From NCBI GenBank assembly GCA_044376115.1, contig JBILLK010000011.1:256001-320000 (forward strand): a DNA stretch of 64,000 bases, in the 5' to 3' direction. The notes below the pieces were generated by a model. It was not told the DNA's origin and made no database searches. It saw only the letters and a program-made list of their open reading frames with translations. Positions 7,088 through 61,287 of the stretch are shown piece by piece. The translations under genes were made by a program, and so were the position numbers. Numbering within the stretch: the stretch's first letter is position 1; every line of letters starts with the position of its first letter. This DNA comes from Polyangiaceae bacterium (lineage in GTDB: Bacteria; Myxococcota_A; Polyangia; Polyangiales; Polyangiaceae).

Positions 7088-8881
7088 CTAGATAGTCAAC
7101 TCGCTGGAGTTGGGGATGCTGGAGGCCCGTAGGGGCGGGAGGATCGACGGCTGCTTGGCAAAGTCGCGCGGGAAGAGAAACCGCATGGTTGTCCCCACGC
7201 CTAGGCTCGTCTCAATCTCGATGCGGCCACCTAGCTCGCCACAGGCGGATTTGAGTGCGCTCATACCAACGCCGCGGCCGGAGGTCTCGTTGGCTTGGTC
7301 GCGGGTTGAGACGCCATCGGTAAAGAGGGCTTCGATCAGATCCTCTTTGCTCGTACACGGCAGCCCTGCCTTGTTGGCTTTTGAACGAATCGTCTCCCAG
7401 TCGATCCCAGCGCCATCATCACGCAGCTCGACAATGATGTACTCAGCCGTGCGCGAGGCAATGAACTCGAGCTTGGCTGTTGCAGCCTTCCCCAACTCTG
7501 CTCGCTGATTCGCCGACTCAATGCCGTGATCGACGGCATTGCGCACCGCATGAACGAAGGCCGCCCAGAACGGTGCAAAGTGTCCTTTGCGTACGCGGAT
7601 GCCGTCCGCTTTGACGGTGGTGGCGATGGGAGCCTTTTCGAGCCGCTCACCCAATGCGACGGCCTGCTGAGCGAAGTTGACGAGTTGTCCTTGGACAGGG
7701 GAGAGCGCGAGGTTTTGCAGCTTCTCAAGCACATCGTGGCGGGAGCCATTGGCCGCCATCATCTTGTAGACCTCGGCGTACTCGGTCTTGGTCCAGGTCA
7801 CACCACCACTATCACTGCCGAGCAGGCCGCGGATGCTCTGCTCGAGCTGTTGCCAGCGGCTCTGCAGTAGCGCCTTCTCGCCTGGCTCAAGCATCGTTCC
7901 ACTGCTTAGGACGCGGTCCTCGAACGTGTGACAGAGGGCTGCGACGCTGGTCAACCCAAACAGTGAGGAGGCGCCCTTCAAGGTGTGAAGTTCCCGCGCG
8001 AGGTAGGCCATGGATGTGGCGCGGCCCGTCACCAACGACTCGACGATACGCGTGGCTTCCTCGAAGAAGGAGCGGAAGGACTCGCGATCTTGCGAGAGTC
8101 GTGAAAGCGCAGCCGATAGCTCTCGTTGCTCTGCGTCTAGCCGCTCCCGTTCCAGTTCGGCTGTCAGATCCCGCATGACGACCAGAACGTTGGAGAGAAC
8201 CCCATTCTGCAGCAGCGGTTGATAGGTAACTCCGAGCGGGATGCCACTTACGTCGAGCCGCTTTGGCAGTTGGTCAATCGCGAGCTCGAGCGGCAGCACG
8301 TCATCCAACATCAGCTCCCAACAAACCTGAAGCTCCGCGGCATAACGAGGACACTTATCCGCAAGGAAGTCCCATAGCTTCGTGTCGGGCGCTGGCGCTC
8401 CAAGCCAGCGCGTGAGCGCAGCTGAACATTGAGTCGCCATGACCCCCGAGGCCTCGACCGTCACGAGCCCGTCGGAGACATTGTCCAGTAAGAAGCGTTG
8501 GGCGCGTTGCGCAGCCTCGAGATTGGAGATGTCACCAAATGCCGCCATGATGCGGCCAGGCCTTAGCTTCAAGAGGGTCAGCGTGAGCACCAAGGGCTCG
8601 CCGGACTCGCGTTGAATCGGGATGCGGTAGCCCTCACAGATCGGCCCGCGCTCCTCCTCGAAGCCGCTGATTAATCCTCGAATGCCGCTGTCAACGGTGT
8701 CGAGAATGTCCAATAGATTGGTGAGCTCCGGCGTGGGGGCAAACTCCATCAGCAGGTTGGCGCCCATCGAGTTCATCATGTCGATCGCCCCAGACTCGTC
8801 GATGCGGGCTAGTGCGAACGGACTGAGGTAAACAAACTCGAGCAGCTCTTCGTGCTGCTGATTCAGATCGATTTCCTGCAT
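7088..8881 (-). CDS. CheA-like histidine kinase, PAS-PAS-Hpt-HATPase, no CheW domain
   Basis: Hpt ELHTLKGASSLFG; CheA-type N box HAVRNAVDHGIE; DDGAGID; GVSTRDQANETSGRGVGM; GGRIEIETSLGVGTT; the protein ends shortly afterwards. Confidence 0.88.
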   Translation of the reverse strand: MQEIDLNQQHEELLEFVYLSPFALARIDESGAIDMMNSMGANLLMEFAPTPELTNLLDILDTVDSGIRGLISGFEEERGPICEGYRIPIQRESGEPLVLTLTLLKLRPGRIMAAFGDISNLEAAQRAQRFLLDNVSDGLVTVEASGVMATQCSAALTRWLGAPAPDTKLWDFLADKCPRYAAELQVCWELMLDDVLPLELAIDQLPKRLDVSGIPLGVTYQPLLQNGVLSNVLVVMRDLTAELERERLDAEQRELSAALSRLSQDRESFRSFFEEATRIVESLVTGRATSMAYLARELHTLKGASSLFGLTSVAALCHTFEDRVLSSGTMLEPGEKALLQSRWQQLEQSIRGLLGSDSGGVTWTKTEYAEVYKMMAANGSRHDVLEKLQNLALSPVQGQLVNFAQQAVALGERLEKAPIATTVKADGIRVRKGHFAPFWAAFVHAVRNAVDHGIESANQRAELGKAATAKLEFIASRTAEYIIVELRDDGAGIDWETIRSKANKAGLPCTSKEDLIEALFTDGVSTRDQANETSGRGVGMSALKSACGELGGRIEIETSLGVGTTMRFLFPRDFAKQPSILPPLRASSIPNSSELTI

Positions 8882-8906
8882 GGAAGTGCCCTTTCAAGTG
8901 TCTAGT

Positions 8907-9644
8907 TCATTCGCCGAACAGACCGCTCGCACAATGGTGCTGAAGCTTTCTTCGCGATACGTCCGAGCGTCGTAGCTCGATATGTTGCTTTAGCTGTGCG
9001 TGGAAACCGCGCTCTTGCGTGTTCCAATGGGGTCCCACGAGAAGGTGAGGGAGGCACCCTTTTGCCGCAACGTCAGCCGCTGAAACGTCAGGCCCGTAGA
9101 TATGTATTTCCAAGCCGTGGCGCAGCCCGCCCAATAGCTCGATAGCAAATAGCCGCCAATCCGCGCCCCAATTCCCGGTGGTGCCGAGTCGCTCGTGCGT
9201 AGGGTCCATGACCGCGGGGAGCTCTTCCCATATTGCGCCGAGATCTTCGTTTGAAAGTGAGCTTCCATCGCTAAACCTGATGCGGCCTTCGTCTCCGCTG
9301 GCCGCCCTCTCTTGGGGTAGGAGGTCGAGTTGCTCGTCGAAGAAGGCGCTTACGCCCTCTGCGGCGGCAGATGAAGCGTCCACCGCCGGGGTGAAGCAGG
9401 CGCCGACTCGGAGACACCCTACGAACGTCTGCACCCACCCGATCTTCGAGTGGCCCGAGTAGCCAACCCGATGCCCCTCCACGAGACCAGCCTCGCGGAG
9501 CAGCTCGGCTACGCGCTTCCCTCCCATCCAAAGGGAGGGTGAGGCGCAAATCCTCTCCGGCGCTCCTGCGCTGTGCTCGATGACCATCGGCAAGGCGCCG
9601 GCGAGCCATCGAGCGCGAAAGTCGCGTAGGAGAGGTTCACTCAC
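8907..9644 (-). CDS. degenerate AMP-binding (acyl-CoA ligase-like) N-terminal domain protein
   Basis: LREAGLVEGHRV...FVGCLRVGACFTP resembles the ANL N-terminus; no TSGTTGxPKG loop; only 245 aa; GTG start overlaps the upstream TGA. Confidence 0.55.
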   Translation of the reverse strand: MSEPLLRDFRARWLAGALPMVIEHSAGAPERICASPSLWMGGKRVAELLREAGLVEGHRVGYSGHSKIGWVQTFVGCLRVGACFTPAVDASSAAAEGVSAFFDEQLDLLPQERAASGDEGRIRFSDGSSLSNEDLGAIWEELPAVMDPTHERLGTTGNWGADWRLFAIELLGGLRHGLEIHIYGPDVSAADVAAKGCLPHLLVGPHWNTQERGFHAQLKQHIELRRSDVSRRKLQHHCASGLFGE

Positions 9645-11077
9645 TCGGCGCTCGGGGCTTCTTGAATGCGTGAACGCAGGACCTGAAAAGCTCGCTCATC
9701 GAGCAGCCCTGCAGCGCCGCGCGGAGTCAGGACGGCAAAGGCGAACGTCGGCTCGTAGCTGGCGTCCACCATGGCGGCCGGGAGCGCGACTCCTTGCGCC
9801 CGAGTAGGCGCGCCGCTGCCGATGACCTCAACGCTGCGACCCGACGCGAAGGTGACTCGATAGGTCGCCGGCGGCGCCGCCGGGTCGTTACGGAGGTCCA
9901 ACGTAGCCTCCGCTTTCTCGCTCGAGGCGTCGAGCAAGGCGCGACTCGGGAAGCAGACCAACGAGCCCCGGCCTTCAACCACGACGAAGCCCTCTCCGCT
10001 CGCAAGCCCAGCGCGAGGGATCGTAATGATGACCTCGGTTGAGCGACCTTCGGTGTCTGCGACCGACGCGGTGGCGCCCATCACCTCGAGCTCGGCGAGG
10101 AACGTGCTCCAGGTGCTACGTGCGTCCTCATTGGCTTCGAGCGTGCGACTCAGGTCGCCGCGCCCCTCGAACGAAAGCCGCAGCTCCGTTGAGCGTTCAC
10201 CCGAATTCACCGATACGCTGAACTCGGCATGGGCCGGCTTGCCCTGCGCCTGTCGGGCTTCGGGCTTCTCCTGCGCGAAGGCTAGAAGTACGGCTCCGGC
10301 GCCTCGCGTTACATCGGCGAGCTTGCGGGCGAGCCGAAGGTCCACCTTGAGCTCGGGCGACGCCGCTTTGGCCACGGTGATGCGAGCGCCGGTGTCGCGC
10401 GCCATCGCCTCCACACAGTCTGCAAGAATCGGCCAGACGGTGTCGAAGTCAACCGCGAGCACACGGTCGGCCTCTTGTGCGAGATCCGCCAGCATCTTCT
10501 CATAGCGCTTGGTCAGCACATCCAGCCGAGTGGCAGGTAGCGATTGTGCTGTACGTAGCTCGGTTAGGCTGGCCGCTGCGTCAGAGGCCTCCGAGAAGAT
10601 CCGCGCGACGCTCGCGATCTGCCCTTCGCAGTGCTTTAGGAAGCGCTGTGTCCCGTTGACGTCGGGCCCGCCAATCGCGACGGGCTCAACACAAATCGCG
10701 TCGAGCTTTTCCACCTCGGAGGGCATCATGAAGCCTTCCACAGCCGTTAGGATGTCCGCGCAGACCGAGCCTTTGATGAATACCGAGGGCTCCGCTTCGC
10801 CGTCACGGATACACTGATAGTTCATGGTTTGGTTGTAGCGGACCCATTCGGTCTTTAGCTCCAGCCAGAGGAAGCCAATCGAACGGTAAAGCTCCGGCTC
10901 GTCTTCCGGTGCACCGAGCGCGTCGGCCAACTCCGCGATCGAAGCCGCCTTGGACCGCGCATAGTCCATCACCTTGTCCCGGATGGCCTGCTCCACCTTC
11001 ATGTCGTCCAAAAGGCTGGCGACCTGCGGGAGCAACCGCTCCCCCGTCATCTGCTTGAATTTTTCTGATAGCAACAT
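9641..11077 (-). CDS. pseudo-CheA: unrecognised helical N-domain, degenerate HATPase and CheW-like C-terminus
   Basis: GGAGG RBS before ATG 11077; EKPEARQAQGKPAHAEFSV, SFEGRG, MGATASVADTEGRSTEVIITIP and GFVVVEGRGSLVCFP follow the CheA P4-P5 layout without the catalytic N/D residues. Confidence 0.6.
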   Translation of the reverse strand: MLLSEKFKQMTGERLLPQVASLLDDMKVEQAIRDKVMDYARSKAASIAELADALGAPEDEPELYRSIGFLWLELKTEWVRYNQTMNYQCIRDGEAEPSVFIKGSVCADILTAVEGFMMPSEVEKLDAICVEPVAIGGPDVNGTQRFLKHCEGQIASVARIFSEASDAAASLTELRTAQSLPATRLDVLTKRYEKMLADLAQEADRVLAVDFDTVWPILADCVEAMARDTGARITVAKAASPELKVDLRLARKLADVTRGAGAVLLAFAQEKPEARQAQGKPAHAEFSVSVNSGERSTELRLSFEGRGDLSRTLEANEDARSTWSTFLAELEVMGATASVADTEGRSTEVIITIPRAGLASGEGFVVVEGRGSLVCFPSRALLDASSEKAEATLDLRNDPAAPPATYRVTFASGRSVEVIGSGAPTRAQGVALPAAMVDASYEPTFAFAVLTPRGAAGLLDERAFQVLRSRIQEAPSAE

Positions 11078-11132
11078 AGAGTCCTCCGATACCGTCAATG
11101 GTTTCTCAAGATGTCGTTCGAGACGGTCTGAA

Positions 11133-11501
11133 CTACTTCTTGGTGACGAAGACCCAGTTGGTTCGCGAGGGCTTATGGCGATAAAGCCGAATGCCCACGT
11201 TTGTCGGGCGCATCTTATAGGTGAATGTGTAATTGAACTCGACGTCGAGGTCCCCCTTGGCGACGCCATCCTTGAAGCGGCCAAAGAAGAGCCGGTTGTT
11301 GGTGCAGACGGCAATCTGCGTGAAGAAGTTCTTGCCCTCGGTCGTCGCGGGCGAGAAGCCTGCCATCTCAGCTTCCCAGCGATTGTACATCTGGATTATG
11401 CCTGCGTCGTCCACCTTGACGACGCCATAGTTCACAGCGTTTGCCTGATCGCGGGAGATCATATCGAGATTGCTCAAGAGACTGGATTCGACAAATGACA
11501 T
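11133..11501 (-). CDS. pyp: photoactive yellow protein homologue (122 aa)
   Basis: Ungapped match to Halorhodospira halophila PYP: MYNRWE (Y42, E46), GKNFFTQIAVCT (C69), FGRFKDGV, YTFTYKMRPT (F96, Y98, M100), WVFV (W119). Confidence 0.93.
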   Translation of the reverse strand: MSFVESSLLSNLDMISRDQANAVNYGVVKVDDAGIIQMYNRWEAEMAGFSPATTEGKNFFTQIAVCTNNRLFFGRFKDGVAKGDLDVEFNYTFTYKMRPTNVGIRLYRHKPSRTNWVFVTKK

Positions 11502-11520
11502 GGGATGAGCCTTTCGGGTC

Positions 11521-13173
11521 TCAGCCGAAGATTCTTCGGATGGTCGACGGTTTAGATTGTTGTTCACGTAGTGAGTTGAATTTAGATATAAGTTCAAGCG
11601 GGTCGTGTGAGCCGAGCGCTCTCTCGAGCCGCTCGCGATCCGCCTTCATTGAACGAACTTGGCTCTCCAGGGAGCTGCGATCGTCCTTCTGTTCTTGGCG
11701 CTCTTGGTAAAGGGACTCCACCTGGGCAAGGAGGTTCTCCCGCATCATGCGCTCGCGCTGAATCACGGCGACGGCGGACTCCGAGCCAACTTCATCGAGG
11801 AGCTCCTGCCGCTCTGCATAGAGGGCCTCGACCTGAGCGAGGAGGTTCTGGGCCATGGTCTTGGCGTCGGAGTCGTCATTGCCGGCCGCTTCTCTATCGG
11901 CATAGAGGGCCTCGACCTGAGCGAGGAGGTTCTGGGCCATGGTCTTGGCGTCGGAGTCGTCATTGCCGGCCGCCTCTCTATCGGCATAGAGGGCCTCGAC
12001 CTGAGCGAGGAGGTTCTGGGCCATGGTCTTGGCGTCGGAGTCTTCGCAAGCGGCGGCTTCTCTATCTGCGATAAGCGATTCGACTAGCACGAGGAGGTTC
12101 TGGGCCATGGTCTTGGCCTCGGAGTCGTCGTCGTTGGCTTCTCTATCTGCGATGAGAGACTCGACCTGAATCAGGAGATTCTGGGCCATGGTCTTGGCCT
12201 CGGAGTCTTCGTTGGCAGCGGCTTCTCTATCCGCAATAAGCGATTCGACCAGCACGAGGAGGTTCTGGGCCATGGTCTTGGCCTCGGAGTCTTCGTTGGC
12301 AGCGGCTTCTCTATCCGCGATGAGAGACTCGACCTGAATCAGGAGATTCTGGGCCATGGTCTTGGCCTCGGAGTCGTCGTCGTTGGCTTCTCTATCTGCG
12401 ATGAGAGACTCGACCTGAATCAGGAGATTCTGGGCCATGGTCTTGGCCTCGGAGTCTTCGTTGGCAGCGGCCTCTCTATCTGCGATAAGCGATTCGACCA
12501 GCACGAGGAGGTTTTGGGCCATGGTCTTAGCCTCGGAATCGTCGTCGCCGGCTGTCTCTCTATCCGCGATCAGGGACTCGACCTGTGCGAGCAGGTTGTC
12601 GATGGTCTGCTGCTGACTTGATTGTGCGCGCTCGGATCGTTCGCGCTCTTGATGGAGACCAGCGATTTGGATGCTGAGCCTCTCGACCGTCTCGAGCGAT
12701 CGATGCAGGCTGATCATCAGCTCGTCATTGGCCGGTAAGCTTCGTTCAGCCGGCGCACTCGCTGCTACGTGCTTGGTGGCTTGGCTCTCGCGTTCGGCGT
12801 AAAGGGTCTCGAGCTGCGCGGATAGGTTCTCTACCGTTGCCGTGAGCTTCTCCACCTCACGTTCGACTGGTGAGAGCTCGAGCCGTGCGCTGAGTTGGGC
12901 AGCCGGCGATTCAGCCTGCGGCGGAATGACCGAGTCTTGCTGAACCTCGACGGCGTCTCCTGGCGTCACCAGCTGGTCAACGAACTGGCTCCACATTTGA
13001 ACTGGGGATGGTGGGCGCAGTTTTTGGCGTCGCGGGCTGACCTCCGTAGGTCCGCCCACGCGGCGCACGACTTCCAAGGCAATCAGCAGGTCACGTACGC
13101 TAACTTCCTCGCCTTGGATTCGTACTAACGTATCCTCCGCCTGTTGATCGTTGTGTGCGAGCCTATGGGTCAT
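11521..13173 (-). CDS. acidic coiled-coil protein with tandem 27-28 aa repeats, directly upstream of pyp
   Basis: GAGGAG RBS; nine copies of AKTMAQNLL; 19-bp gap to pyp. Confidence 0.85.
   Translation of the reverse strand: MTHRLAHNDQQAEDTLVRIQGEEVSVRDLLIALEVVRRVGGPTEVSPRRQKLRPPSPVQMWSQFVDQLVTPGDAVEVQQDSVIPPQAESPAAQLSARLELSPVEREVEKLTATVENLSAQLETLYAERESQATKHVAASAPAERSLPANDELMISLHRSLETVERLSIQIAGLHQERERSERAQSSQQQTIDNLLAQVESLIADRETAGDDDSEAKTMAQNLLVLVESLIADREAAANEDSEAKTMAQNLLIQVESLIADREANDDDSEAKTMAQNLLIQVESLIADREAAANEDSEAKTMAQNLLVLVESLIADREAAANEDSEAKTMAQNLLIQVESLIADREANDDDSEAKTMAQNLLVLVESLIADREAAACEDSDAKTMAQNLLAQVEALYADREAAGNDDSDAKTMAQNLLAQVEALYADREAAGNDDSDAKTMAQNLLAQVEALYAERQELLDEVGSESAVAVIQRERMMRENLLAQVESLYQERQEQKDDRSSLESQVRSMKADRERLERALGSHDPLELISKFNSLREQQSKPSTIRRIFG
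11808..12597 (-). repeat. in-frame tandem repeat, 84/81-bp unit, about 9.5 copies
   Basis: GGCCATGGTCTT recurs on the + strand with spacings 84,84,84,81,84,84,81,84; the unit encodes NLL(A/I/V)(Q/L)VE(S/A)L(I/Y)ADRE-acidic linker-S(E/D)AKTMAQ. Confidence 0.95.
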
Positions 13174-13262
13174 TCCGGGTCTCCTCGGGATGCCCGGGAG
13201 AACGGACCAACAGCGCGGCGATATAAGGTTTGTTTGTTTTAGAAGACCACTACCGTGTGCCG

Positions 13263-14279
13263 TTACGTCGGCGAAAAACTCCAGTACGTAGAACTACTGA
13301 TCGGTGTTCCTGCGGACTCATTGGGTGATAGTCGGCCGATGCGCAGCCAAGGATTTGGCAGTTTGAGTTGTAAGGCCGTCGCTGCGATTGTTATGTAAGA
13401 GGATAGTTGCTTGTGCGCTGACCTGGACCAAGACTCGCCGCGCAGGTTCGCCAGGAGGAGCTCCATGCAGGTGTTACCGCAGCGTTCCCCAATCCCCATC
13501 GCCGTCGCGTGAATACGATCGACGCCGCACTCAGCCGCGGTGAGGGCATTGGCGAGTGCAAGCCCACGATCATTGTGGCCATGGAAATCGAGGGAAGTAT
13601 CCGTAAAGCCCCGGTCAGAAAGGAGCTGCTTTACATAGCGGACCAGGGTGCGCACGCCGTTCTGATCGGCGTGACCAACGGTGTCTGCGATGCAAAGTCT
13701 GCTGGCTCCTGCATCGAGCGCAGTAAGGAGCAGGGGGGTCAGGACAGCTGGTGCGCTGCGAGTCGTGTCTTCCGTCACGAAGGTGACCTCGAGACCCGCA
13801 CGCGACGCTATGTTTACGGCCGAGCGGGTTCGCTCTATCAGCTCGTTTAGCCTCCAACCCTCTGCGTAGGCGCGTATCGAACTCGAGCCGATGAACGTGT
13901 GCGCTTCTACCTTCGCTCCCGTTTGGTCGCAGACCTGCAGGATAGTCCGTATATCTGCTGATAACGTTCTTCCCGCGAGCACCGGTATGAGCGGGAGCCG
14001 CTGACGTTCAATCTCCGTCACAAGCCGAATAGCGTCGTCTTTCGCCCGCGTGGATGCTGCGGGAATACCGAGATTGACGGCATTGATGCCTAGTTTTGGC
14101 ATCGCGTGAAGCAGCTCTAGTTTTTCTCGCAGACTGGGGTGCCTTGCTGAGGGGCACTGAAGCCCGTCACGTAACGTTTCATCGAGTACATGCGTCGCCT
14201 GAAAAGCGGAAAGTAACGAGTCATTCCGCCGAATGCGGATGCATTGATTCCAGTCGTAGGGTGCTCTCGGATCGTTCAT
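13263..14279 (-). CDS. DRE-TIM metallolyase, 2-isopropylmalate/homocitrate synthase-like, C-terminally short
   Basis: DETLRDGLQ, EDTTR, IADTVG, HGHNDRGLALAN, GIGERCGN; 338 aa. Confidence 0.85.
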   Translation of the reverse strand: MNDPRAPYDWNQCIRIRRNDSLLSAFQATHVLDETLRDGLQCPSARHPSLREKLELLHAMPKLGINAVNLGIPAASTRAKDDAIRLVTEIERQRLPLIPVLAGRTLSADIRTILQVCDQTGAKVEAHTFIGSSSIRAYAEGWRLNELIERTRSAVNIASRAGLEVTFVTEDTTRSAPAVLTPLLLTALDAGASRLCIADTVGHADQNGVRTLVRYVKQLLSDRGFTDTSLDFHGHNDRGLALANALTAAECGVDRIHATAMGIGERCGNTCMELLLANLRGESWSRSAHKQLSSYITIAATALQLKLPNPWLRIGRLSPNESAGTPISSSTYWSFSPT

Positions 14280-14430
14280 GCGTCACTGAGGCTCAGCATC
14301 AAGTGTGCCGCGGCCGCGGGCTAATGCGCTATGCACTGCGCGCTTAAGCGATTGTTTGGTTGCGCGCTTTGCAACGGTGCGGTCGGCCGCGTCGTCTTGC
14401 TGGACGACCCAAACCCGACGAGGAGTGGCT

Positions 14431-15948
14431 ATGTCGAACGAGTCCAAAGAATCGCCTGCAGTGGACCCCAGCCTGCTCGTCGAGGTGGGCAACACGAAGA
14501 TCCCAATGAGCGAGCTGATCATGGCGCTCGACCTGTTGAAGGGTGTCAGCGGGAGGAGCCCCGTACCTCGCCCGCATCGGCCCTCAGCCAAGGACGCCGT
14601 TCGTATGTGGAATCAGTTCGTCCAAGACCTCGTTGAACCGCAGTCGGGTGAGCAGGCTTGCGATACCGACGCGAAGGCTGCGCAGATTGAGCTAGCGGCC
14701 TCCGTCGTGCGCGCTGACCAAGTCACGCAGGAGCTTACCGAGCTAAAGGAGAAGTTCGCGACGCTCTCCCAGCTTCACACGGACGAGCGTGCCAACAGTG
14801 AAGCCCTGGCGACAGCGCTCGGCGTTGCTCGGGCTGCAGCCGAGACTCAGCGTGTCGAGCTAAGCACGCTTCAAGAGCAGCTGGATAGCTCAGCCTCTTT
14901 GGCGGCCGAGAAGGATGCTGCGATCGTTGAGCTCGCTGAAGCCGAGAAAGCGTACGAGAACGTTGGACAAGAGTTAGGCAGAGTGATCGCAGAGCGCGAT
15001 GGGCTCGCACACTCGCTGGCCGAGGTGGCTGCACGAGCCGAACAGCAGCGCGCCGACGCCGAACAATTGCGAGCCTCGTTGCAAGCGAGCCAAACGCAGG
15101 TTGAAGCGTTAGCGACGGCGGCTGCTCAAGCTGAGGCGGTTCACGCGGAGGCTTGCGCAGGCCTTGTCGCGGCGCATGCGGCAGCACTCGCTGCTAGCGA
15201 CGAGGCGCACTCGATTGCTCTCGCGAGTCAGTTGGAGGCGCATGCCGCAGAGGTTGCGAGCCTCAAAGCCGAGAATGCCGAAGTCTCAGCGGGTGGGGTT
15301 CAGTTGGCGCGGACGCTGGCGGCGGCCCTGGTTGAGCAACAGGCGGCAACGAACCGTGCCGAGCAGCTGCAGAGCCAGCTCGCGTTGCAGGCGTCGACGC
15401 AGCATGAGTGTACGACTGCGTTGCACGCTCTCGAATCCCGCCACGCCGAGTTGCAGGGCGTGCACGAAGCGATGCAAGCGAGGGTGCTCGAACTCGAGGC
15501 TCAGCTCGCGGAGGGTGAGCCTCAGGTCGCTGAGGCGCACGTCGCTGAGCCATGCGTGAACTGTGCCTCGCTCGAGGGGCAAGTCGACTCGCTGCAGATT
15601 GCGGTTCAACGGGCGGCTGACATCCATGCCAGTCTTGTTCAGCACGCAGCCAAGTTGCACGCCGACAAGCGCCAGTTGGCTGATGCCATCGGTGGGGAAG
15701 ACCCGCTTGAGACGCTGCGAGTGGAGCGTGCCAACGCCGCAAATGTGGTGGCCTACGCCGCAAGCTTGCATGCAGAGCTCTGCTACGAGAGTTCGCTACC
15801 AACTCAGTCTCCCCCGCCCGTGAGCCCAAGCGCGGAGCAACCCGTGGAGGAGCTGGCTCCGTCCTATGCCGAAGCTTCTTCGAGCGAGCGGATGCCGCTG
15901 GCCTCCACGCGGCCGAATCCACGCAGCGAAGCCCCCGCTCTCAACTAG
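14431..15948 (+). CDS. Ala-rich coiled-coil protein, paralogue of 11521-13173
   Basis: GAGGAG RBS before ATG 14431; N-terminal SELIMALDLL...VRMWNQFVQDLVEP matches RDLLIALEVV...VQMWSQFVDQLVTP. Confidence 0.8.
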   Translation: MSNESKESPAVDPSLLVEVGNTKIPMSELIMALDLLKGVSGRSPVPRPHRPSAKDAVRMWNQFVQDLVEPQSGEQACDTDAKAAQIELAASVVRADQVTQELTELKEKFATLSQLHTDERANSEALATALGVARAAAETQRVELSTLQEQLDSSASLAAEKDAAIVELAEAEKAYENVGQELGRVIAERDGLAHSLAEVAARAEQQRADAEQLRASLQASQTQVEALATAAAQAEAVHAEACAGLVAAHAAALAASDEAHSIALASQLEAHAAEVASLKAENAEVSAGGVQLARTLAAALVEQQAATNRAEQLQSQLALQASTQHECTTALHALESRHAELQGVHEAMQARVLELEAQLAEGEPQVAEAHVAEPCVNCASLEGQVDSLQIAVQRAADIHASLVQHAAKLHADKRQLADAIGGEDPLETLRVERANAANVVAYAASLHAELCYESSLPTQSPPPVSPSAEQPVEELAPSYAEASSSERMPLASTRPNPRSEAPALN

Positions 15949-16059
15949 GCGCCGCAGCCCTCTGCAATTCTTCGTGGCCGCTCTCGCAGGGACGCGGTAG
16001 GTGCCTTTGGCCGGCTCTTGCCGGAGCGAGCATCTAGCGTAGTGAGCGAGGGTTTTGCC

Positions 16060-18024
16060 ATGCTTGTTGGAGTGATCGGCTCAGGGGCCATCGGGCCGGA
16101 TCTTGCGTACGGCTTCATGACGGCGCTTGCACGGGAGCCTGGGTCCAAGGTGTACCTTGTCGACATCAAGGAGGAGGCCTTGCAAGCCGGGATGAAGCGC
16201 ATCCGCGGCTACGTTGAGAAGGGGGTGGCGCGTGGCAAAATTGCCCCCGCCGCCGCGAAGTCGATTCTTGCTGGGCTCGTGCCCACACAGCAGCTCAGCG
16301 ACCTCGCGCAATGCGACTACGTGCTCGAGGCCGCCAGTGAGGACCTGGCGATCAAGCGTCGCATCCTCGAGGGGCTCGAGGCGATCGTGCGCAACGACTG
16401 CTTGATTGGCTTTGCGACCTCCGGCCTTCCGCGCGCGCAGATCGCCGCTAGCGCCAAACACCCCGAGCGCTGCTTCGTCAATCACCCTTTCTATCCGGCG
16501 TGGCGTGCCCTGCCGATTGAGGTGGTTTTGTCGGAGAGCGCAGAACTCAGCGAGCGCATGGTCTCCACCATCAAGAAGTTGGGCCGTGTCCCGGTCATCA
16601 CTGCCGACGTGGAGTGTTTTGCGGCCGATGACGTCTTCTGCAACTACATCGCGGAGGCCGCTCGCATCGTGGAGGAAGGCGTAGCGACCCCTGCTGCAGT
16701 CGACGCGATCGTCAACGCGGCCATTGGCGGCGGTGGCCCGTTCAACGTCATGGACCTGACGAAGGGCAACCTGCTCGTTCACAAGTGTCAATTGCTCATG
16801 CAGAAGGCCAAGACAGGCACAGCGTGGTTTGCTCCGCCCAAGATCCTAGAGACGCAGGGAGACGCTCCTTGGCACGATCGCAAGAACCCCGGCAATGCCA
16901 GTTATGATTCCGCGCTCGCTGACAAAGTGATGAACCGCATTTTGGCGGTCTTGCTCGCGCGTACCTACTTCCTCATCGAGAACGACGTGTGCGCCAAGAC
17001 CGAGACCAACTGGCTCATGCGTATGGCGCTCGGGTTCAACAAAGGAACGATGGAGATCGCGGAGGACCTCGGCCCGGCCAAGGTTCGGGAGATCTGCTTG
17101 CGCTACGCCGAAGAACATCCCGGTTTCGTGGTGCCCAAATTGATTCGCGATGGGGCGCTACCGGCCTTCCGTAAGAACGTTACCGTCGAGCGTGAAGCTG
17201 ACGTCGCTGTCGTGCGCGTGTTCCGCCCTGAGGTAAAGAACGCCCTCTCCAAGGCGACCTTGCTCGAGCTGGATAGTGCGATAGCGGAGCTAGAAGCTGA
17301 CGGCTCGGTCAAAGGGGTGGTGCTAACGAGCTATGACGGTTCCTTTGCGGGGGCCGACATCCTCGAGCTGGCTGCGCTGCCGGATGCCGCTGCGTGCGAG
17401 GCTACGTGCCTCGCTTCGCATCCAATCTTCGAGCGCATCGCTGCTTGCAAGAAGCCCATCATCTCGGCTGTGGACGGCCCTTTGCTCGGGGGAGGTGCAG
17501 AGCTGGCGATGGCCTGCCACGCGCGGATCGTGGGGGAGTCGCTTGCGTTCGGTCAGCCCGAAGTAAACCTGGGCATCATCCCAGGATATGGCGGTACGCA
17601 ACGGTTGCCGCGATTGGTTGGCGTGGCCCGCGGGGCCGAGCTCGTGCGCACGGCGCGGAGCGTGAACGCGAAGGAGGCTTGCGAGTGGGGGTTTGCCTAC
17701 GGCGCGCCAATGGCCGATCCGGTGGCAGCCGCAAAAGCCTTGATCACCGAGGTCCTTGCCGGCAAGAGCTTGCCAAACCTCGATGAAGGTCCGGTCGCAG
17801 GGCTCGAAGCCTTGGGCCCGCTCGACATTGGGCACAGGTCTTTGGCGATCGACGCAATTGTCGTCGATGTGTTGCGCCGCGGTCTGGCGTTGCCGCTCAA
17901 GGAAGGCCTCGCCATCGAGGCCAAGGGCTTCGCCCGCTGCAAACAGACGGTGGATATGGACGTTGGCATGAAGAACTTCATGCAGAACGGTCCGCGCGTG
18001 CCAGCCGCCTTCCTCCACGAATAG
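16060..18024 (+). CDS. 3-hydroxyacyl-CoA dehydrogenase / enoyl-CoA hydratase fusion
   Basis: N-terminal GVIGSGAIG, VLEAASEDL, NHPFYP; C-terminal crotonase KNALS, FAGADI, LGGGAELAMACH, GQPEVNLGIIPGYGGTQRLPRLVG. Confidence 0.9.
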   Translation: MLVGVIGSGAIGPDLAYGFMTALAREPGSKVYLVDIKEEALQAGMKRIRGYVEKGVARGKIAPAAAKSILAGLVPTQQLSDLAQCDYVLEAASEDLAIKRRILEGLEAIVRNDCLIGFATSGLPRAQIAASAKHPERCFVNHPFYPAWRALPIEVVLSESAELSERMVSTIKKLGRVPVITADVECFAADDVFCNYIAEAARIVEEGVATPAAVDAIVNAAIGGGGPFNVMDLTKGNLLVHKCQLLMQKAKTGTAWFAPPKILETQGDAPWHDRKNPGNASYDSALADKVMNRILAVLLARTYFLIENDVCAKTETNWLMRMALGFNKGTMEIAEDLGPAKVREICLRYAEEHPGFVVPKLIRDGALPAFRKNVTVEREADVAVVRVFRPEVKNALSKATLLELDSAIAELEADGSVKGVVLTSYDGSFAGADILELAALPDAAACEATCLASHPIFERIAACKKPIISAVDGPLLGGGAELAMACHARIVGESLAFGQPEVNLGIIPGYGGTQRLPRLVGVARGAELVRTARSVNAKEACEWGFAYGAPMADPVAAAKALITEVLAGKSLPNLDEGPVAGLEALGPLDIGHRSLAIDAIVVDVLRRGLALPLKEGLAIEAKGFARCKQTVDMDVGMKNFMQNGPRVPAAFLHE

Positions 18025-18057
18025 TCGCCTCCCCACATATCGAAGGATCAACGAGCC

Positions 18058-19332
18058 ATGTCGAACATCTCCAACATCGTCATTCTCGAGGGTGGGCGCC
18101 GGACTCCGCGCGCCGATATTTTAATTGATAATCGAGAGGCGGGCCTGTTCTCCCGGTTCTCTACGACTCAGCTGGGCGGCCTCGCCATTGCCGCGACGCT
18201 CGACAATACCAAGCTCGACCGCGGCCTCGTTGGGCATGTCGTGATGGGAATGGCGCAACACAGCCATCGCGACAGCATCTACGGCGCGAAGGGAATGGCC
18301 TATCGCGGTGGGCTGGGCAATGACGTCCCGGCCCTCACGGTCGCCCGAATCTGCGGTAGCGGCGCAGAGGCCGTCGCCGTTGGGGCCGAGATGATCCTGG
18401 CGGGCGTACGGCACGACACCGATAGACCCTTTGTGGTCGTCGGTGGCGCCGAGTCGATGCAGTATCCCTTCTGCCTTTACGGTCAGCGCGGGAAGAAGGT
18501 CGGCGAAGCCGTGCAGAAGTACGGCCCCATCGACGCGAAGTCGCTGCCGGCTGGCACGCACCTGCAGGATATGTTGCTGATGAGCCTCTACGATCCGTCG
18601 GCCAAGATGGCGATGGCCAATACCGCGGAGGAGCTTGGCCGTCGCTACAAGATTACCCGGGAGGAGGCGGATGCCTTTGGTCACCGCTCCCACGTGCTCG
18701 CGAAGAAGTCGCGAGACGCCGGCGTGTTTCTGGAAGAGACAGTTCCCGTCGTCGTGGAGACGACAGGGGATACGCTCACCGTCAAACACGATACCCACAT
18801 CATGGACGATATATCGCTAGCGAAGATGGCGCGCCTTCCGGCCGCCTTCGAGGCGGGCGGCATCATTACGGCCGGCAACGCCAGCGCCGTCGTCGACGGT
18901 GCAGGCGCGATGGTGATCGGGCTGGAGAAAGACGCCGCCAAACACGGAGCGAAACCGCTCGCTCGCATCGCGGGCATGGGAGTCGCTGCCTGCGACCCCT
19001 CGATCATGGGCTGGGGCCCCGTGCCGTCAACCAAGCGAGCCTTGGCGAGTGCCGGCATTCCCGGCAGTAAGATCGATCACGTCGAGCTCAATGAGGCCTT
19101 CGCGCCGCAGGCTCTAGCTGTGATTCGAGACTTTGGCGAGTTGGGTATTGCGCCCGAGAAGGTCAATCCGCTCGGCGGCGCGGTAGCGCTCGGTCACCCG
19201 CTTGGGGCGACTGGCGCGATTCTCACGCTCACGTGTGCTTACGCCCTGCGTCGCGAGAAGAAGCAATACGGCCTCGTGACGATGTGCATTGGTGGCGGCC
19301 AAGGAATCTCGCTCATCATCGAGTCCCTCTAG
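18058..19332 (+). CDS. thiolase (acetyl-CoA C-acyltransferase)
   Basis: RICGSG, GGAESM, TAGNAS, NEAFAPQ, GHPLGATG, CIGGGQG. Confidence 0.93.
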   Translation: MSNISNIVILEGGRRTPRADILIDNREAGLFSRFSTTQLGGLAIAATLDNTKLDRGLVGHVVMGMAQHSHRDSIYGAKGMAYRGGLGNDVPALTVARICGSGAEAVAVGAEMILAGVRHDTDRPFVVVGGAESMQYPFCLYGQRGKKVGEAVQKYGPIDAKSLPAGTHLQDMLLMSLYDPSAKMAMANTAEELGRRYKITREEADAFGHRSHVLAKKSRDAGVFLEETVPVVVETTGDTLTVKHDTHIMDDISLAKMARLPAAFEAGGIITAGNASAVVDGAGAMVIGLEKDAAKHGAKPLARIAGMGVAACDPSIMGWGPVPSTKRALASAGIPGSKIDHVELNEAFAPQALAVIRDFGELGIAPEKVNPLGGAVALGHPLGATGAILTLTCAYALRREKKQYGLVTMCIGGGQGISLIIESL

Positions 19333-56838: not shown

Positions 56839-57839
56839 TCTTCATTCCTCGCTACGTGAAAGAGCCCTCGCTCCTTACCGTCAGAAGCCGTCACGATGGC
56901 CACGCTCGAACCAGCACCGAAACCCAAGGTGAGCCCAAGCGTCCCGATCACGAGCAACAGCGCTCCGCTGGCTGCGCCCACGTCACCAAAATCTCTCGGT
57001 ACGTTCTGAATGATGGTCTTCTCTGGATCGATCGTCGCAGGGTTGCGCATCGCGGCGTAGGTCCATTCCTTTACGCGATGTCGCTCACCGTTGAGGTCTG
57101 TGAGCACCCACGGGATCGGGTGCGGCAGTCTGGGATCACGGAGCAGCTTGGTGAAGCAGGCTGCGGTCGGCGGCCCCTCGAGTTCCTGCTCACCGGTCGC
57201 GACCAAGGTGATGGTCGCGAGTCGGCGTACCTCGGCTGGGACCTTGCGAAGCTTCGGTGACACACACACGAACGCTGCTGCTTCGCCTGGGATAAAGCCG
57301 TTGGCCGAGCGCTCCGAGAGCAACCGGAAGCCGGTATCGAGCGTCGCAATGCGCGCGGCATCGTAGTAGGAGTCGACGCCGCCGATGATGACGCGAATGT
57401 CGCCGTAGAGTTGGGCGCGCCCGAGTAGCGCAGCGAAACCGGCTCGTCCGAGTCGCACCACCGCCGACCGATCGTCGAGCGAGAGGTTCACAGCCTTCGC
57501 TAAATCGAAAAGAAGTCGGCTCGCGATGCGCTCGTCCTCTCCTTCGTAAAGCTCTGGCAACGACAACAGCAAGATCGTCTTCTCCGAGCGAAGCTGCGGA
57601 GGTGCGGACGAAAGCACCTCTTCGAGCGCGGGGATGGCCAGAGCCAACATCCGCTCGTAGCCCACGGTATCGTCGCTCAGGTTTGCGGAGCGTACGGCGC
57701 CTACCGAAACTCCGGTCTTGTCGCGAAACCGTGTCCCGCGAGGGTCTGCTTTGCCGGCGCGCCAGAACAGCGCAGTTTGGCGCGCGTCGAGGCCCAAAGG
57801 GGAGGAGGCTCCAACCGACCAGACCGAGAGTTCGCTCAT
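56835..57839 (-). CDS. ketosynthase-fold protein of T6SS DUF2169 cassettes (PRK06147-like)
   Basis: GASSPLG, GGVDSY, GFIPGEAAAF, DLNGERHRVKEW, FGDVGAASG. Confidence 0.82.
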   Translation of the reverse strand: MSELSVWSVGASSPLGLDARQTALFWRAGKADPRGTRFRDKTGVSVGAVRSANLSDDTVGYERMLALAIPALEEVLSSAPPQLRSEKTILLLSLPELYEGEDERIASRLLFDLAKAVNLSLDDRSAVVRLGRAGFAALLGRAQLYGDIRVIIGGVDSYYDAARIATLDTGFRLLSERSANGFIPGEAAAFVCVSPKLRKVPAEVRRLATITLVATGEQELEGPPTAACFTKLLRDPRLPHPIPWVLTDLNGERHRVKEWTYAAMRNPATIDPEKTIIQNVPRDFGDVGAASGALLLVIGTLGLTLGFGAGSSVAIVTASDGKERGLFHVARNEE

Positions 57840-59278
57840 CTGGACTCAGCCTTCGCGAGCTGCTTGGGCTTTGCGGCTTGCTGGAGTTCGGTCACGTGAT
57901 GCTCGAGTTCCTCCGCCGCGCGTGGGTCCGACTGGAGTCGCGTCATGGTGTTGCGTTCCCATCGAATCCACTCGCCGAGCGAGAGCTTCGCCTGCTTCAG
58001 TGCCTTGCTGGGATCCCCTTGGGACATGCGGTGTCGCATCTCAGCGAATTCACGCAGCGTGCGCTCTTGCTCCTGAGGGCGAGCGAACGACTGGCTCTCC
58101 TGGGCCATCGCTTGCGCGTAGCGGGTGGCCAACGGCGCCTCGATCGGGTTCTGGAGCGTCTCCTCCATCATGCGCTCGGTCCAGGCGCGACTCTCGAGCG
58201 CAAACTTGAACTCGTTCGTGTCGTACTTCTGAAAAATGTCGGCGCGAGGTCGGCGTGCTTCGTTGAGTTCGGTCTGAATCTTCGCGAACTCCTCGATGCT
58301 GATGCGCGTGTCGGGCGCGAACGGGCAATCGAGGGTCGAATACATGGCGTCTTCCAGCTCGTCTTCGTCGAGCTCGGGAGGCGCGATCCCGGCCACGGCG
58401 TCCTCGTAGCTCCACGCCCACTCGAAGTGCCCGTGGCCCATCTCACGATAGAGCTCAGGAAAGCCGTCTTCCCATTCGTCGTCGGTCGCCCATCCGATGA
58501 GCACCCGGTCGATCTCGCTCGGGTCGTCCCTGCGGAACCAGGAGCCACGCCAAGTAACCTCGAGCTCGCACTTCTCGACGTCGATGATCAACGTGTCGAG
58601 GTGGAGCGGCTGGATGCGACTCTTTTCATCGCCATCTTGTGGCTCGACCAGCACGCGGGGGGCTCGTTCCGGGATGCGCGCCTTGAAGTAAGGCTCCGGT
58701 TGATCATCCAGTTGGAGGAAGAACTCCATCCCCGGTGTCAGCGTGCCCAAGTTGCGAGCAAGCGCCGGGTGGCTGAACGAGTACAGCTCGAAGGGAAAAC
58801 CCTCGGGATGATCGAACTCGGTTTCAGCTGGGTTGAGCGCCTCATTGAGCCCGCAGTGTTCCTTCGTCCCGCCGATCACACGCACCGAACGCTCGTCGAT
58901 CGCGATTCTCCCACCGACGTCGCTGGTGATGGAGATCGGCGTCTCCTCTTCGCCCAGAACCAGTCGCGCGGTCGCTCGAATCGGTTCGCCGCGTTTGCTC
59001 ACCAAGTTGAACGACCCGGTCAGCGCTACATCGATCCAAGGTTTCGACGGTACAAAGTCGATCGGGCGAAGCAGCGTCTGGGATTGTTCCGGCGTACCGA
59101 TCATTACGTCCGGCCGCGTGAGACCGCTGGCGTCGTCGAACGGCACCCTGGTCTTGACGATGATGCCGTAGAGCCCGGTGTCTTCGTAGCGCCAGTGAAG
59201 CACGCCGGTTACTTGGGGCGCTCTGCTCAGCTTGGCCGATAGGTGAGCAGCCGACGTAGCGACCAAAATACGATCCAT
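57836..59278 (-). CDS. DUF2169 family T6SS adaptor with C-terminal helical repeats
   Basis: IIVKTR, DFVPSKPWIDVALTG, LHLDTLIIDVE...EVTWRG. Confidence 0.8.
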   Translation of the reverse strand: MDRILVATSAAHLSAKLSRAPQVTGVLHWRYEDTGLYGIIVKTRVPFDDASGLTRPDVMIGTPEQSQTLLRPIDFVPSKPWIDVALTGSFNLVSKRGEPIRATARLVLGEEETPISITSDVGGRIAIDERSVRVIGGTKEHCGLNEALNPAETEFDHPEGFPFELYSFSHPALARNLGTLTPGMEFFLQLDDQPEPYFKARIPERAPRVLVEPQDGDEKSRIQPLHLDTLIIDVEKCELEVTWRGSWFRRDDPSEIDRVLIGWATDDEWEDGFPELYREMGHGHFEWAWSYEDAVAGIAPPELDEDELEDAMYSTLDCPFAPDTRISIEEFAKIQTELNEARRPRADIFQKYDTNEFKFALESRAWTERMMEETLQNPIEAPLATRYAQAMAQESQSFARPQEQERTLREFAEMRHRMSQGDPSKALKQAKLSLGEWIRWERNTMTRLQSDPRAAEELEHHVTELQQAAKPKQLAKAESR

Positions 59279-59404
59279 CTATTTCTCCACCTACCACAGC
59301 TTGGCTAGCGCCTCTCCAGTCCCCGGAGAGGCGCACCGACCGACAGCACGGCCGCAGAATCAAGGTTCGGCGACGCCGTTCCGCCGGTAGGCTACACAAC
59401 CTGA

Positions 59405-61243
59405 CTAGCCGTCATTCTTCGCGAACAGTGAGCGCAGCGGACGGAACGTCTGATCTCCGTACTTGTACTTCCAGGAGTCCGGGAACCACGAGCCGCTTTC
59501 GTCACGTTCCCACCACAAGGCGCGGATTTGGAACATTGCCTTAACGCCAGGATCGATCGACCCCTTTTGCAGATCGAAGCCGATGTCATTCTCCGGCGGG
59601 TACTTCTTGAGATTGCCGAAGGTCGGCTTCCATTGCGCGCCACCCTCGACTGTCACAGAACCCAGCCTGCGAATGCTGACCGAGGCGTAGAGGAAGAACT
59701 CGAATGCCAAAGGAACAGTTAGGTCGGCGATGAGAACCTCTTCGTACTCGTTCCAGCCAAAGGAGAGCTTTATCCCTAACTGAACTTTGAAGCGCACGCC
59801 GACCTGAGCGTCGGCGACGTAGTCGACGATTTTTTGCGCCACCCAGCCGAGTCCGGGAATCGCATTGAGCAACGCACTCAGCGGTACGCCGAGCTTGATC
59901 TCAGCGCTCAACAGCTCGGTGCAGGAAAGGTCCAAGTAAACGGCCTTATTGCACTGGTACTTCTTCAGCCCGATGCTCGGGACGTCCCTGTCCAGCTCCT
60001 TCCACTGACAAACGAATTTCGCCGCGGGATCCTCGAGCAGCTTGATGTCGAGCCTAAATCGAGCGCCGATCGTGTTGAGCAGCCGTTGTCCGGCTTCAGC
60101 GAAGGACTTCAACTTCTCGAAGGCAGCCTTCACCGGCCCGAAGTCTTTGAGATCGAACTCGGCTTCCTTGTAGGGGAAGATCACGAGTTCGAAGCTTTGA
60201 GAGCCTGAACAGGCAATCGCTTGAATGTTGATTCGGCGTGGATCGTTGCGAAAGCGGAAGACCTTGAGCCAGTCGTAGATGCTCTTGATGTTCGTGGCGG
60301 CGGTGATGAGGGGTTTGCCCTTCTTCATCAGCTCGCCCCATTTGGCCTTCTGCTTAAGCTTCTCGTCGACCACCGCATCGCGGCCGCCGTTCTTCCAGGC
60401 TTCGCGTGCCTCAGCCTTCGCTGCTGCACGGTCACCCGTGAGCGGCGTGCGATTCTGGACATTGGAGTCGATCGTGTTCGGGTCGAGGCCGCGGCGCACG
60501 CGCGAGTCCTTGGCGATTCGATCCGCTGCTTCTCGGTCGGCCGCCTCCCTGGCCTCCTTGAGGTTCTTTGCTGCCTTGTCGGCCTGATAGGCCTCCTTTT
60601 CGGCCTTCTCTTTGTCCGTTAGTTTGACGTCTTTCGGTGGCTCGCGAGCGAAGTCAGGGTTCGGGTTGTACCAGTTGACCTCGAGCGTCTGCTTGTCCCC
60701 GAAGCGCTCCTCCTTTTTCTCGTTCATATCCCCGCCTTTTTTGCGGGAAATGACCCACTTGGTGTGGGGCTTGGCTTCGGGGCACTCCGGCGGGCCTTGC
60801 TTCTTTGCGTTGATGCGCTCGGCCTCGAGCTCGGTCACGTCGTCGTCGACGATCTCGAGAATCTTGCTGTCATCGAGCGTGCGCTTGCCGCTCTTGAGCA
60901 ACTTGATCTTGACCATCGAGCAGGCCTTCTTGGCCTCTGCGTCGACGTTGGGCTTCGCTGCTGCGCCGCCGCCTTCCACGAGCGCGCCGGTGCTCGGCGG
61001 TTGCTTGTGCACGGTGGAGTCAGTCGTGCGCGCCAGGCCGTCTCCCTGCGCGGTAACGGTTGGGGAGCCGTTGGTTACCGTCGCGTTGCCCGCCAAGGTC
61101 GTTCCTTGGGTCACTGCCTTCCCGCCGGAAACCTCGGTGCGCGACTTCGGATTGTCGGCTGCCGCCGTCGGTACGATCGGCGAGGTGTGAGCGGTGCCGT
61201 CAGATGCAGCTGACAAACCTTGGTTAGTAGTAACGCCTGCCAT
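59405..61243 (-). CDS. putative T6SS effector with N-terminal PAAR-like (DUF4150-like) domain
   Basis: N-terminus V-TTNQG...GSPTVTAQGDGLARTTD...STGALV; located between vgrG and the DUF2169 gene; C-terminal domain not recognised. Confidence 0.65.
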   Translation of the reverse strand: MAGVTTNQGLSAASDGTAHTSPIVPTAAADNPKSRTEVSGGKAVTQGTTLAGNATVTNGSPTVTAQGDGLARTTDSTVHKQPPSTGALVEGGGAAAKPNVDAEAKKACSMVKIKLLKSGKRTLDDSKILEIVDDDVTELEAERINAKKQGPPECPEAKPHTKWVISRKKGGDMNEKKEERFGDKQTLEVNWYNPNPDFAREPPKDVKLTDKEKAEKEAYQADKAAKNLKEAREAADREAADRIAKDSRVRRGLDPNTIDSNVQNRTPLTGDRAAAKAEAREAWKNGGRDAVVDEKLKQKAKWGELMKKGKPLITAATNIKSIYDWLKVFRFRNDPRRINIQAIACSGSQSFELVIFPYKEAEFDLKDFGPVKAAFEKLKSFAEAGQRLLNTIGARFRLDIKLLEDPAAKFVCQWKELDRDVPSIGLKKYQCNKAVYLDLSCTELLSAEIKLGVPLSALLNAIPGLGWVAQKIVDYVADAQVGVRFKVQLGIKLSFGWNEYEEVLIADLTVPLAFEFFLYASVSIRRLGSVTVEGGAQWKPTFGNLKKYPPENDIGFDLQKGSIDPGVKAMFQIRALWWERDESGSWFPDSWKYKYGDQTFRPLRSLFAKNDG

Positions 61244-61287
61244 CGGATTCTCCTCTCAAGGGGACTGAAAGTCTTAACTTCGGGCGT

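Follow-up and report, generated by a model that had tools for sequence, protein, structure and literature searches.

A conserved PYP-associated gene module with a helical domain, a helical-repeat protein and a PAS-headed class-III-type kinase in a Polyangiaceae bacterium

A light-driven change of shape is established for the photoactive yellow proteins (PYPs), and the present work concerns the neighbours of a pyp gene of a Polyangiaceae bacterium (assembly GCA_044376115.1), which gene lies within the 64,000 nucleotides at positions 256,001 to 320,000 of contig JBILLK010000011.1; that whole stretch is hereafter called the window. The locus encodes, together with the PYP, a protein composed of copies of a helical motif that we name R; a degenerate relative of CheA beginning with an all-helical domain that we name X; and a histidine kinase beginning with a PAS-fold domain that we name Y. 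Comparable loci are treated in Xing 2022 (PMC9664959) and Dohmen 2025 (PMC12826048), here drawn upon in excerpts; those excerpts see the field's chief gap in the missing identity of the partner to which PYP signals, annotate the neighbours of clade-B pyp genes as 'None', 'CheW' or 'hypothetical' with no family being defined, and do not single out Y in the operons of clade-C PYPs with GGDEF/EAL proteins. Direct data on the binding of a PYP to a partner were found, within the literature searched, only for PBP (RCAP_rcc01067) of Rhodobacter capsulatus (bioRxiv 10.1101/2021.06.01.446672, available in part). That search, much of it conducted on partial texts, returned no description of X, of R or of a link between PYP and a class III kinase, with Meyer et al. 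2012, which possibly mentions these open reading frames (ORFs), being outside its scope. Operons joining pyp to kinases, cyclases and chemoreceptors are already known; what is new here is the X family with its ties to CheA and MCP proteins, the network of R-X and R-PYP fusions, and the presence of Y on a kinase.

The locus resembles the clade-B pyp loci of Sphaerotilus natans and Gemmatimonas phototrophica, as excerpted from Xing 2022 and Dohmen 2025, in the clade of its PYP and, with respect to S. natans (locus L031), in the possession of R, X and an X-CheW gene; in contrast, those loci contain HDOD genes plus ligase or lyase genes and have no Y-kinase. In the clade-C operons of the same excerpts the partner begins with the Y PAS domain, as does the kinase of the window, whereas at our locus a phosphorelay kinase, not a cyclase, carries Y, and the PYP belongs to clade B. 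The CheA core comprises P1, P3, P4 and P5 according to the accessible part of PMC10782961, against which the 597-residue kinase has no CheW (P5) domain and the 478-residue CheA relative has neither the Hpt nor the catalytic N, G1 and G2 boxes. The bipartite CheA3/CheA4 of Cereibacter sphaeroides, described in that same part, likewise has two CheA-related genes per operon, but there the Hpt and the active kinase are divided between two proteins; in our locus the 597-residue protein carries the two together and the second gene is predicted dead. As to PBP, that acidic, neighbour-encoded protein (pI 3.9) binds a basic PYP (pI 9.4) according to the portion of the preprint at hand, which charge pattern is similar to ours, the predicted pI being 9.3 for the PYP and 4.2-4.5 for X, Y and R. 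PBP, compared by description only, has 142 residues and a predicted alpha/beta fold, whereas X is all-helical.

Class III histidine kinases, for their part, are said (the account being that of Adebali et al. from 2017) to combine one or more sensor domains with an Hpt and a CheA-like HATPase, to have neither CheW nor a dimerization domain, and to be accompanied by CheX plus a single-domain regulator, with pilT in the genome. With this scheme the 597-residue kinase agrees in its sensors, Hpt and CheA-like ATPase and in the absence of a CheW domain, and differs in being an orphan (neither CheX nor a regulator being at the locus), soluble, and provided with a PYP-associated input domain. Outside the window, on contig C36 of the same genome (positions 163708-168370), one run encodes CheX, a single-domain CheY (167454-167894), a weak soluble MCP and a membrane-sensor Hpt-HATPase kinase paralogous to that of the window; that paralogue with its CheX, CheY and weak MCP fits the class III scheme, as does the pilT gene present in the genome, and we consider the run a candidate for a complete class-III-type system and for the output of the orphan kinase.

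A conserved, undescribed PYP-associated module exists. A gene-neighbourhood survey of the kind that an earlier interpretation of the window from its letters alone (the sequence-only reading) had proposed found that the repeat protein, the CheA relative and the first domain of the kinase co-occur with PYP in other genomes. Among 48 related PYP loci, spanning Myxococcota, Gemmatimonadota, Bdellovibrionota, Planctomycetota, Betaproteobacteria and Bacteroidota, X was present in 43 (three of the five misses being short or cut contigs), R in 38, and X or R in 47, these forward counts having been made with profiles trained on the same 48 loci, many of them kin. Because the X profile had been built from the loci counted, we also ran the test in reverse, and found X in 22 of 1,024 genomes taken in four draws. 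Fourteen of the 18 non-centre genomes with X had a PYP-like domain at most 5 kb away (one of them Cys-less), or 10 of 14 upon removal of the four profile-training genomes; of the other four, two break off at a contig edge with R genes adjacent and two show neither, and three of these four possessed a PYP elsewhere in the genome. The host, with a genome of 10 Mb, has X, R and Y in a single copy each.

Fusions tie the same parts together. R is joined to an active PYP in Bdellovibrionota, 8-13 copies of it precede a Cys-less PYP in Bacteroidota, an R-like extension of PYP is visible by eye in four additional loci, and X is fused to R units in five clear cases. We judge it very probable that PYP, X and R are linked in function. 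Of the PYP-linked pathway that the sequence-only reading had envisaged, the conserved module is supported, and the notion of a split CheA pair and the membership of a LeuA-like gene and a divergent gene are not. The 550-residue repeat protein itself has 12 copies of R (pattern like SLExQLxxLYxE), ten of which lie inside a recent array of 81/84-bp units, the tandem repeat already noticed by that reading being located at 11813-12597 (9.4 copies, period 84 bp); members of R had no Pfam match better than chance. The Bacteroidota loci L058, L072, L076 and L080 encode a long repeat protein ending in a Cys-less PYP domain, with X divergent, and in L058, L072 and L080 the next genes, one or two in number, encode intact PYPs whose N-termini are extended by an acidic stretch. 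In L054 (7614-8363), the sole locus of the 48 with neither X nor R detected, the R-PYP fusion has a transposase-fragment-like N-terminus, which suggests that the operon was disrupted by an insertion.

Table 1. Features of the pyp locus, in window coordinates
Feature	Position	Strand	Basis or remark
Class-III-type histidine kinase, 597 residues, PAS(Y)-PAS-Hpt(His299)-HATPase, without CheW domain	7088..8881	-	Domains; intact N, G1 and G2 boxes
Domain Y, PAS-fold, N-terminus of the kinase, best candidate for a PYP-docking site	8507..8881	-	Also on diguanylate cyclases directly after clade-C PYP genes
p-Coumarate-CoA-ligase-like N-terminal fragment, 245 residues, without P-loop, predicted inactive	8907..9644	-	Pfam and alignment
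Pseudo-CheA, 478 residues: X, P3-like helices (~140-207), degenerate ATP-binding domain (~208-356), degenerate CheW-like tail	9641..11077	-	HHalign; low-confidence model
Domain X, unnamed, all-helical, ~125 residues, N-terminus of the 478-residue protein	10676..11044	-	Family searches and model
PYP, clade-B type, 122 residues, pI 9.3	11133..11501	-	Y42/E46/C69 kept, P68V; groups in tree with S. natans locus
Acidic helical-repeat protein, 550 residues, 12 R copies, candidate scaffold	11521..13173	-	Motif scan; R-PYP and R-X fusions elsewhere
LeuA-like paralogue, 338 residues, truncated, fast-evolving, probable passenger	13263..14279	-	0/48 loci
Divergent coiled-coil gene, genus-local	14431..15948	+	Only N- and C-terminal segments common with repeat protein

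The kinase contains an Hpt (residues 270-348) and a HATPase_c domain, shows no Pfam CheW match and ends shortly past the ATPase domain; H-kinase_dim likewise gave no match, which model is described as insensitive in the accessible part of PMC10782961. His299 and the N, G1 and G2 boxes are intact, as they are in 10 of 12 homologues, and the kinase is predicted to be catalytically complete without a partner because it has its own His and an intact ATP domain. The order of PAS-PAS-Hpt-HATPase given by the sequence-only reading agreed with the profiles; its split CheA pair was not supported, since the phospho-accepting His and the intact ATP domain are together on this one protein and the 478-residue protein is predicted dead. 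By domain content, the kinase is a putative member of a widespread class-III-type family. Its body (approximately residues 120-580) occurs widely in the order behind other N-termini, and a control with Y-less kinases yielded 0 of 28 loci with PYP, X, R or Y inside a narrow flank of 1.5 kb. The order-wide search, whose tally includes a genome (G1435) on which no claim rests, gave matches from Y through the body only in the host (G000) and in G052, in both instances within PYP operons; as the full-length alignment used was dominated by the kinase body, matches to Y alone outside the listed rows may be missed.

Y, the first 125 residues, matches 13 plasmid records, in all 11 of which that were inspected a Cys69 clade-C PYP is encoded directly upstream of the Y-GGDEF gene; it is also present in six of 301 genomes of the order Burkholderiales (one being the search centre), six times out of six beside such a PYP, and likewise in two other Myxococcota genomes (G028, G1432). 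The N-termini of the Y-cyclases are 31-37% identical to the Y of the window. As a separate observation, in the Burkholderiales loci L107, L108, L109/L114 and L153 the clade-C PYP is followed by two tandem Y-bearing proteins. Since Y is here carried on a kinase, we suggest that it may be a swappable input domain for PYP.

In the reading that we prefer, which we hold to be about evenly poised between right and wrong, light-activated PYP would dock on Y and gate the kinase, the X-led pseudo-CheA and the R protein would organise the complex, and a CheY-like regulator would receive the output in trans. The holo-PYP, with p-coumarate on Cys66, would change shape in the light, bind Y at the N-terminus of the kinase and alter the autophosphorylation of His299; the phosphate would then go in trans to a response regulator of the single-domain kind, for which the CheY of the C36 run is the most plausible candidate, and the output would probably tune type IV pilus motility, this being the weakest step. 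The pseudo-CheA and the repeat protein would, to judge from the fusions, serve as a non-catalytic adaptor and a multivalent scaffold bringing PYP and kinase together. We infer the partner binding and the light steps from co-occurrence and fusions, in related genomes that are not independent. The kinase might alternatively be an unrelated neighbour brought by chance next to a PYP-X-R cassette, a patchwork with which the wide occurrence of the kinase body without PYP and the gene order, different from that of L022, would agree; since Y was adjacent to PYP wherever its context was inspected, and since the Y-kinase lies inside a PYP operon in two different families, we consider such an accident very improbable.

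Domain X gave no Pfam match above the gathering score in the 55 members scanned, its best E value against PDB sequences was 0.023, and Foldseek returned nothing at E<=0.001; the model consists of five helices (pLDDT 93.8), whose best VIA match was a designed bundle of generic type (Z 8.6). With regard to a likeness of X to Hpt, no Pfam Hpt match was present in those 55 members, the fold searches gave generic bundles, and the matches to CheA-fragment features in the Atlas were below 0.8. An exhaustive search recovered 388 clusters at 50% identity among 1.84 billion representatives, so that the failure of the X alignment to find homologues in a word-indexed search reflects the low sensitivity of the latter; a metagenome scan with the X of the window yielded two contigs only, of 1.4-1.5 kb. 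Within a fusion survey covering 73 of 150 listed proteins, X stands alone, heads pseudo-CheAs that bear CheW, ends CheAs of the Hpt-HATPase type, and is attached to an MCP domain (P0071). Profile-based MCP counts were discarded for contamination with AAA ATPases; true MCP motifs occur in five of the 48 loci.

The 478-residue protein matched the CheAs of its own genome by HHalign (97.3%, E 2.4e-11) over P3-P4 and into the beginning of P5. In its ATP domain the N-box Asn and the G1 Asp are lost and the lid/G2 is deleted, and the model of that region—the only one used from a model folded without alignment, at pLDDT 47.5—matches kinase ATP domains at Z 11-12 with an rmsd of about 3 Å over 124-148 residues. 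The homologues grade from near-intact (P0097, P0129) down to the present state, and X holds the position of the Hpt. As judged by alignment and model, the protein is a presumptive catalytically dead CheA derivative with X in place of Hpt, in keeping with the pseudo-CheA of the sequence-only reading.

These properties of X invite another arrangement, in which X and not Y would directly receive PYP, the P3/P5-like parts of the pseudo-CheA would act on a partner kinase (the 597-residue kinase or a canonical CheA array elsewhere), and R would tether PYP to X. No neighbour of clade-B PYPs is as constant as X, which is present even where R, Y and ligase are undetected (L074, L075, L081); it occupies the Hpt position along the series of progressively decayed CheAs, in Bdellovibrionota it caps intact CheAs whose genes immediately precede R-PYP fusions, it is fused to the MCP domain of P0071, and it has an invariant W78 with near-invariant D59, N82 and Y87. 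Such a role for X would, however, leave the PYP-restricted PAS graft on the operon kinase unaccounted for, and the X-R fusions are equally consistent with a binding of X to R; we find this arrangement rather unlikely, and it is compatible with docking on Y. In Bdellovibrionota (L056, L057, L060, L061, L063-L065, L067) we further observed the most compact form of the module, namely a CheA with C-terminal X, then the R-PYP fusion gene and, in several, a lyase and a ligase; in L041, L044 and L047 a single run contains PYP, R, X-pseudo-CheA, lyase, ligase and a soluble MCP, with an intact CheA as well in L044 and L047. A gene of the HDOD type, a possible output, recurs near X in clade-B operons, in 19 of the 48 loci (e.g., L031:8880-9923).

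Upon alignment to solved PYPs (E ~1e-23), Tyr39, Glu43 and Cys66 of our PYP correspond to Y42, E46 and C69 of Hhal, and Val occupies the position of Pro68. Residues N68, N69, T94, M97 and P99, in the numbering of our PYP, are unchanged between clades B and C. The TIGR02373 score of 111.4 bits is below the cut-off of 143.05, and is compatible with membership because the clade-B rows of Xing 2022 (PMC9664959, Data Set S3, as available) also fall below it. In a tree of 43 rows the PYP clusters with the S. natans locus—listed as clade B in the same source—and separately from clade C, whose group has a support of 99/95; the closest relatives are labelled delta-proteobacterium and Myxococcaceae. The cassette is patchy, since a PYP at E<1e-60 is found in only three of 61 relatives, the host counted. 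Against the same-genus orthologues, PYP shows 99% identity, the pseudo-CheA 95%, the repeat protein 88-91% where its ends align, and the kinase 86%. Three further PYP-like domains of the genome keep the Cys69 position (C36:26023-26355, C39:114423-114728, C46:71424-71633), one being single-domain and two lying in ORFs of ~390 residues.

The 245-residue ligase-like protein scores 20.9 bits with PF00501, under the threshold of 29.9, is about half the usual length and has no P-loop, comparable short forms occurring in L021, L022, L036, L037, L042 and L043; it is predicted to be the N-terminal half of a PYP-linked ligase family and catalytically inactive, a truncated fragment corresponding to the degenerate acyl-CoA-ligase-like gene of the first interpretation. 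The module might be real and yet not driven by light in this organism, with the PYP being apo or loaded only with environmental p-coumarate, and serving as a conditional chemical sensor or decaying. Such a view would fit the truncated ligase, the absence of both a lyase of the tyrosine ammonia-lyase (TAL) type and a TIGR02372-grade ligase in a genome 95.9% complete, and the change of Pro68 to Val. It is made improbable, in our judgement, by the 99% identity of PYP to its orthologue when the neighbours are at 62-95%, by at least 15 AMP-binding matches elsewhere in the genome, by the presence of lyase-like genes in 26 and ligase-like genes in 33 of the 48 related loci, and by the low frequencies of TAL (~5%) and of p-coumarate-CoA ligase (32%) among pyp operons in the excerpt of Dohmen 2025 (PMC12826048); because most pyp operons thus lack these genes, their absence weakens, but does not remove, light sensing.

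Returning to the docking of PYP on Y, several points weigh against it, in addition to the kinship of the loci on which the forward profiles were trained. The supply of chromophore appears unaccounted for: the ligase is truncated, no protein of the genome passes the TIGR02372 cut-off, no TAL-type lyase was found in the 95.9%-complete assembly, and the only ammonia lyase, on contig C26, is one that, by a motif rule, we take to be of the histidine-lyase type. Y is present in only two of the 48 clade-B loci (L021, of the same genus, and L022), so that the combination of Y-kinase with clade-B PYP is known from two lineages; Y directly follows the clade-C PYP elsewhere, whereas here other genes intervene between pyp and the Y-kinase; the count of Y contexts leaves out 11 further Y-kinases (P0163-P0173); and the three other Cys-bearing PYP-like domains could serve Y. 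No response regulator is encoded inside the cluster, the nearest receiver domain being ~13 kb beyond. Finally, the X-bearing genome G528 gave no PYP with the query used, and G452 has one copy of X without a nearby PYP.

On a broader scale, and with a confidence somewhat short of that given to the docking on Y, we propose tentatively that single-domain PYPs of clades B and C may signal through a modular docking kit, in which Y would lead to cyclases or class III kinases, X to CheA and MCP proteins (replacing the phosphotransfer domain of decaying CheAs), and R would cluster the parts, the present locus uniting all three as a receptor-free, light-gated kinase assembly. The locus in any case provides three small soluble partner candidates with cross-phylum support—Y of 125 residues, X of ~125 and R of ~40-70—and S. 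natans, which is cultured and non-pathogenic, combines an X/R clade-B operon (L031) with a clade-C pair of the Y-cyclase kind (L111). If true, a natural pair of PYP and partner switched by light would constitute an optogenetic tool.

With regard to the layout, the six minus-strand ORFs with intergenic gaps of 89, 19, 55, -4 and 25 bp agree in number, direction and spacing with what had first been described. An RNA-library contig (10545-11712) bridges repeat gene, pyp and X with a word share of 0.15, which evidence comes from one run of contigs whose uncovered stretches are uninformative; it is a weak hint and does not imply a single transcript. A promoter and terminator scan of the locus gave a signal no better than chance. 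As to the genes reported missing, CheW, MCP and aromatic ammonia-lyase had no match on the contig of the window (C7), against 12, 12 and 1 genome-wide, and the cluster contains no receiver; for CheR and CheB the claim is borne out as far as a general scan of 29 long ORFs, which found none without use of the dedicated CheR and CheB profiles.

The LeuA-like and the divergent genes had no match in the 48 loci, the same-genus locus L021 ending before them, and are only 62% and 67% identical, respectively, in the same-genus relative; we take both for passengers because of this absence and fast divergence. The LeuA-like gene (GC3 0.61, 43% identical to a longer paralogue on C43) is thus probably a passenger outside the module and not the system component once supposed. 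The divergent gene, whose true start is at 14431, is a local passenger, present in one of five genomes tested. Its description as a paralogue of the repeat protein is justified in so far as two end segments of ~50-55 residues are shared (34-36% identity, E 4e-8 and 1e-4), and not beyond, there being no convincing R motif in it.

Next to the cluster, window positions 16018-19332 encode a FadJ-like 3-hydroxyacyl-CoA dehydrogenase/enoyl-CoA hydratase and a thiolase, constituting a beta-oxidation pair. At the end of the window (57836-63995), a DUF2169 gene and a VgrG-like gene (Phage_GPD plus gp5 C-terminal) form a type VI secretion spike cluster.

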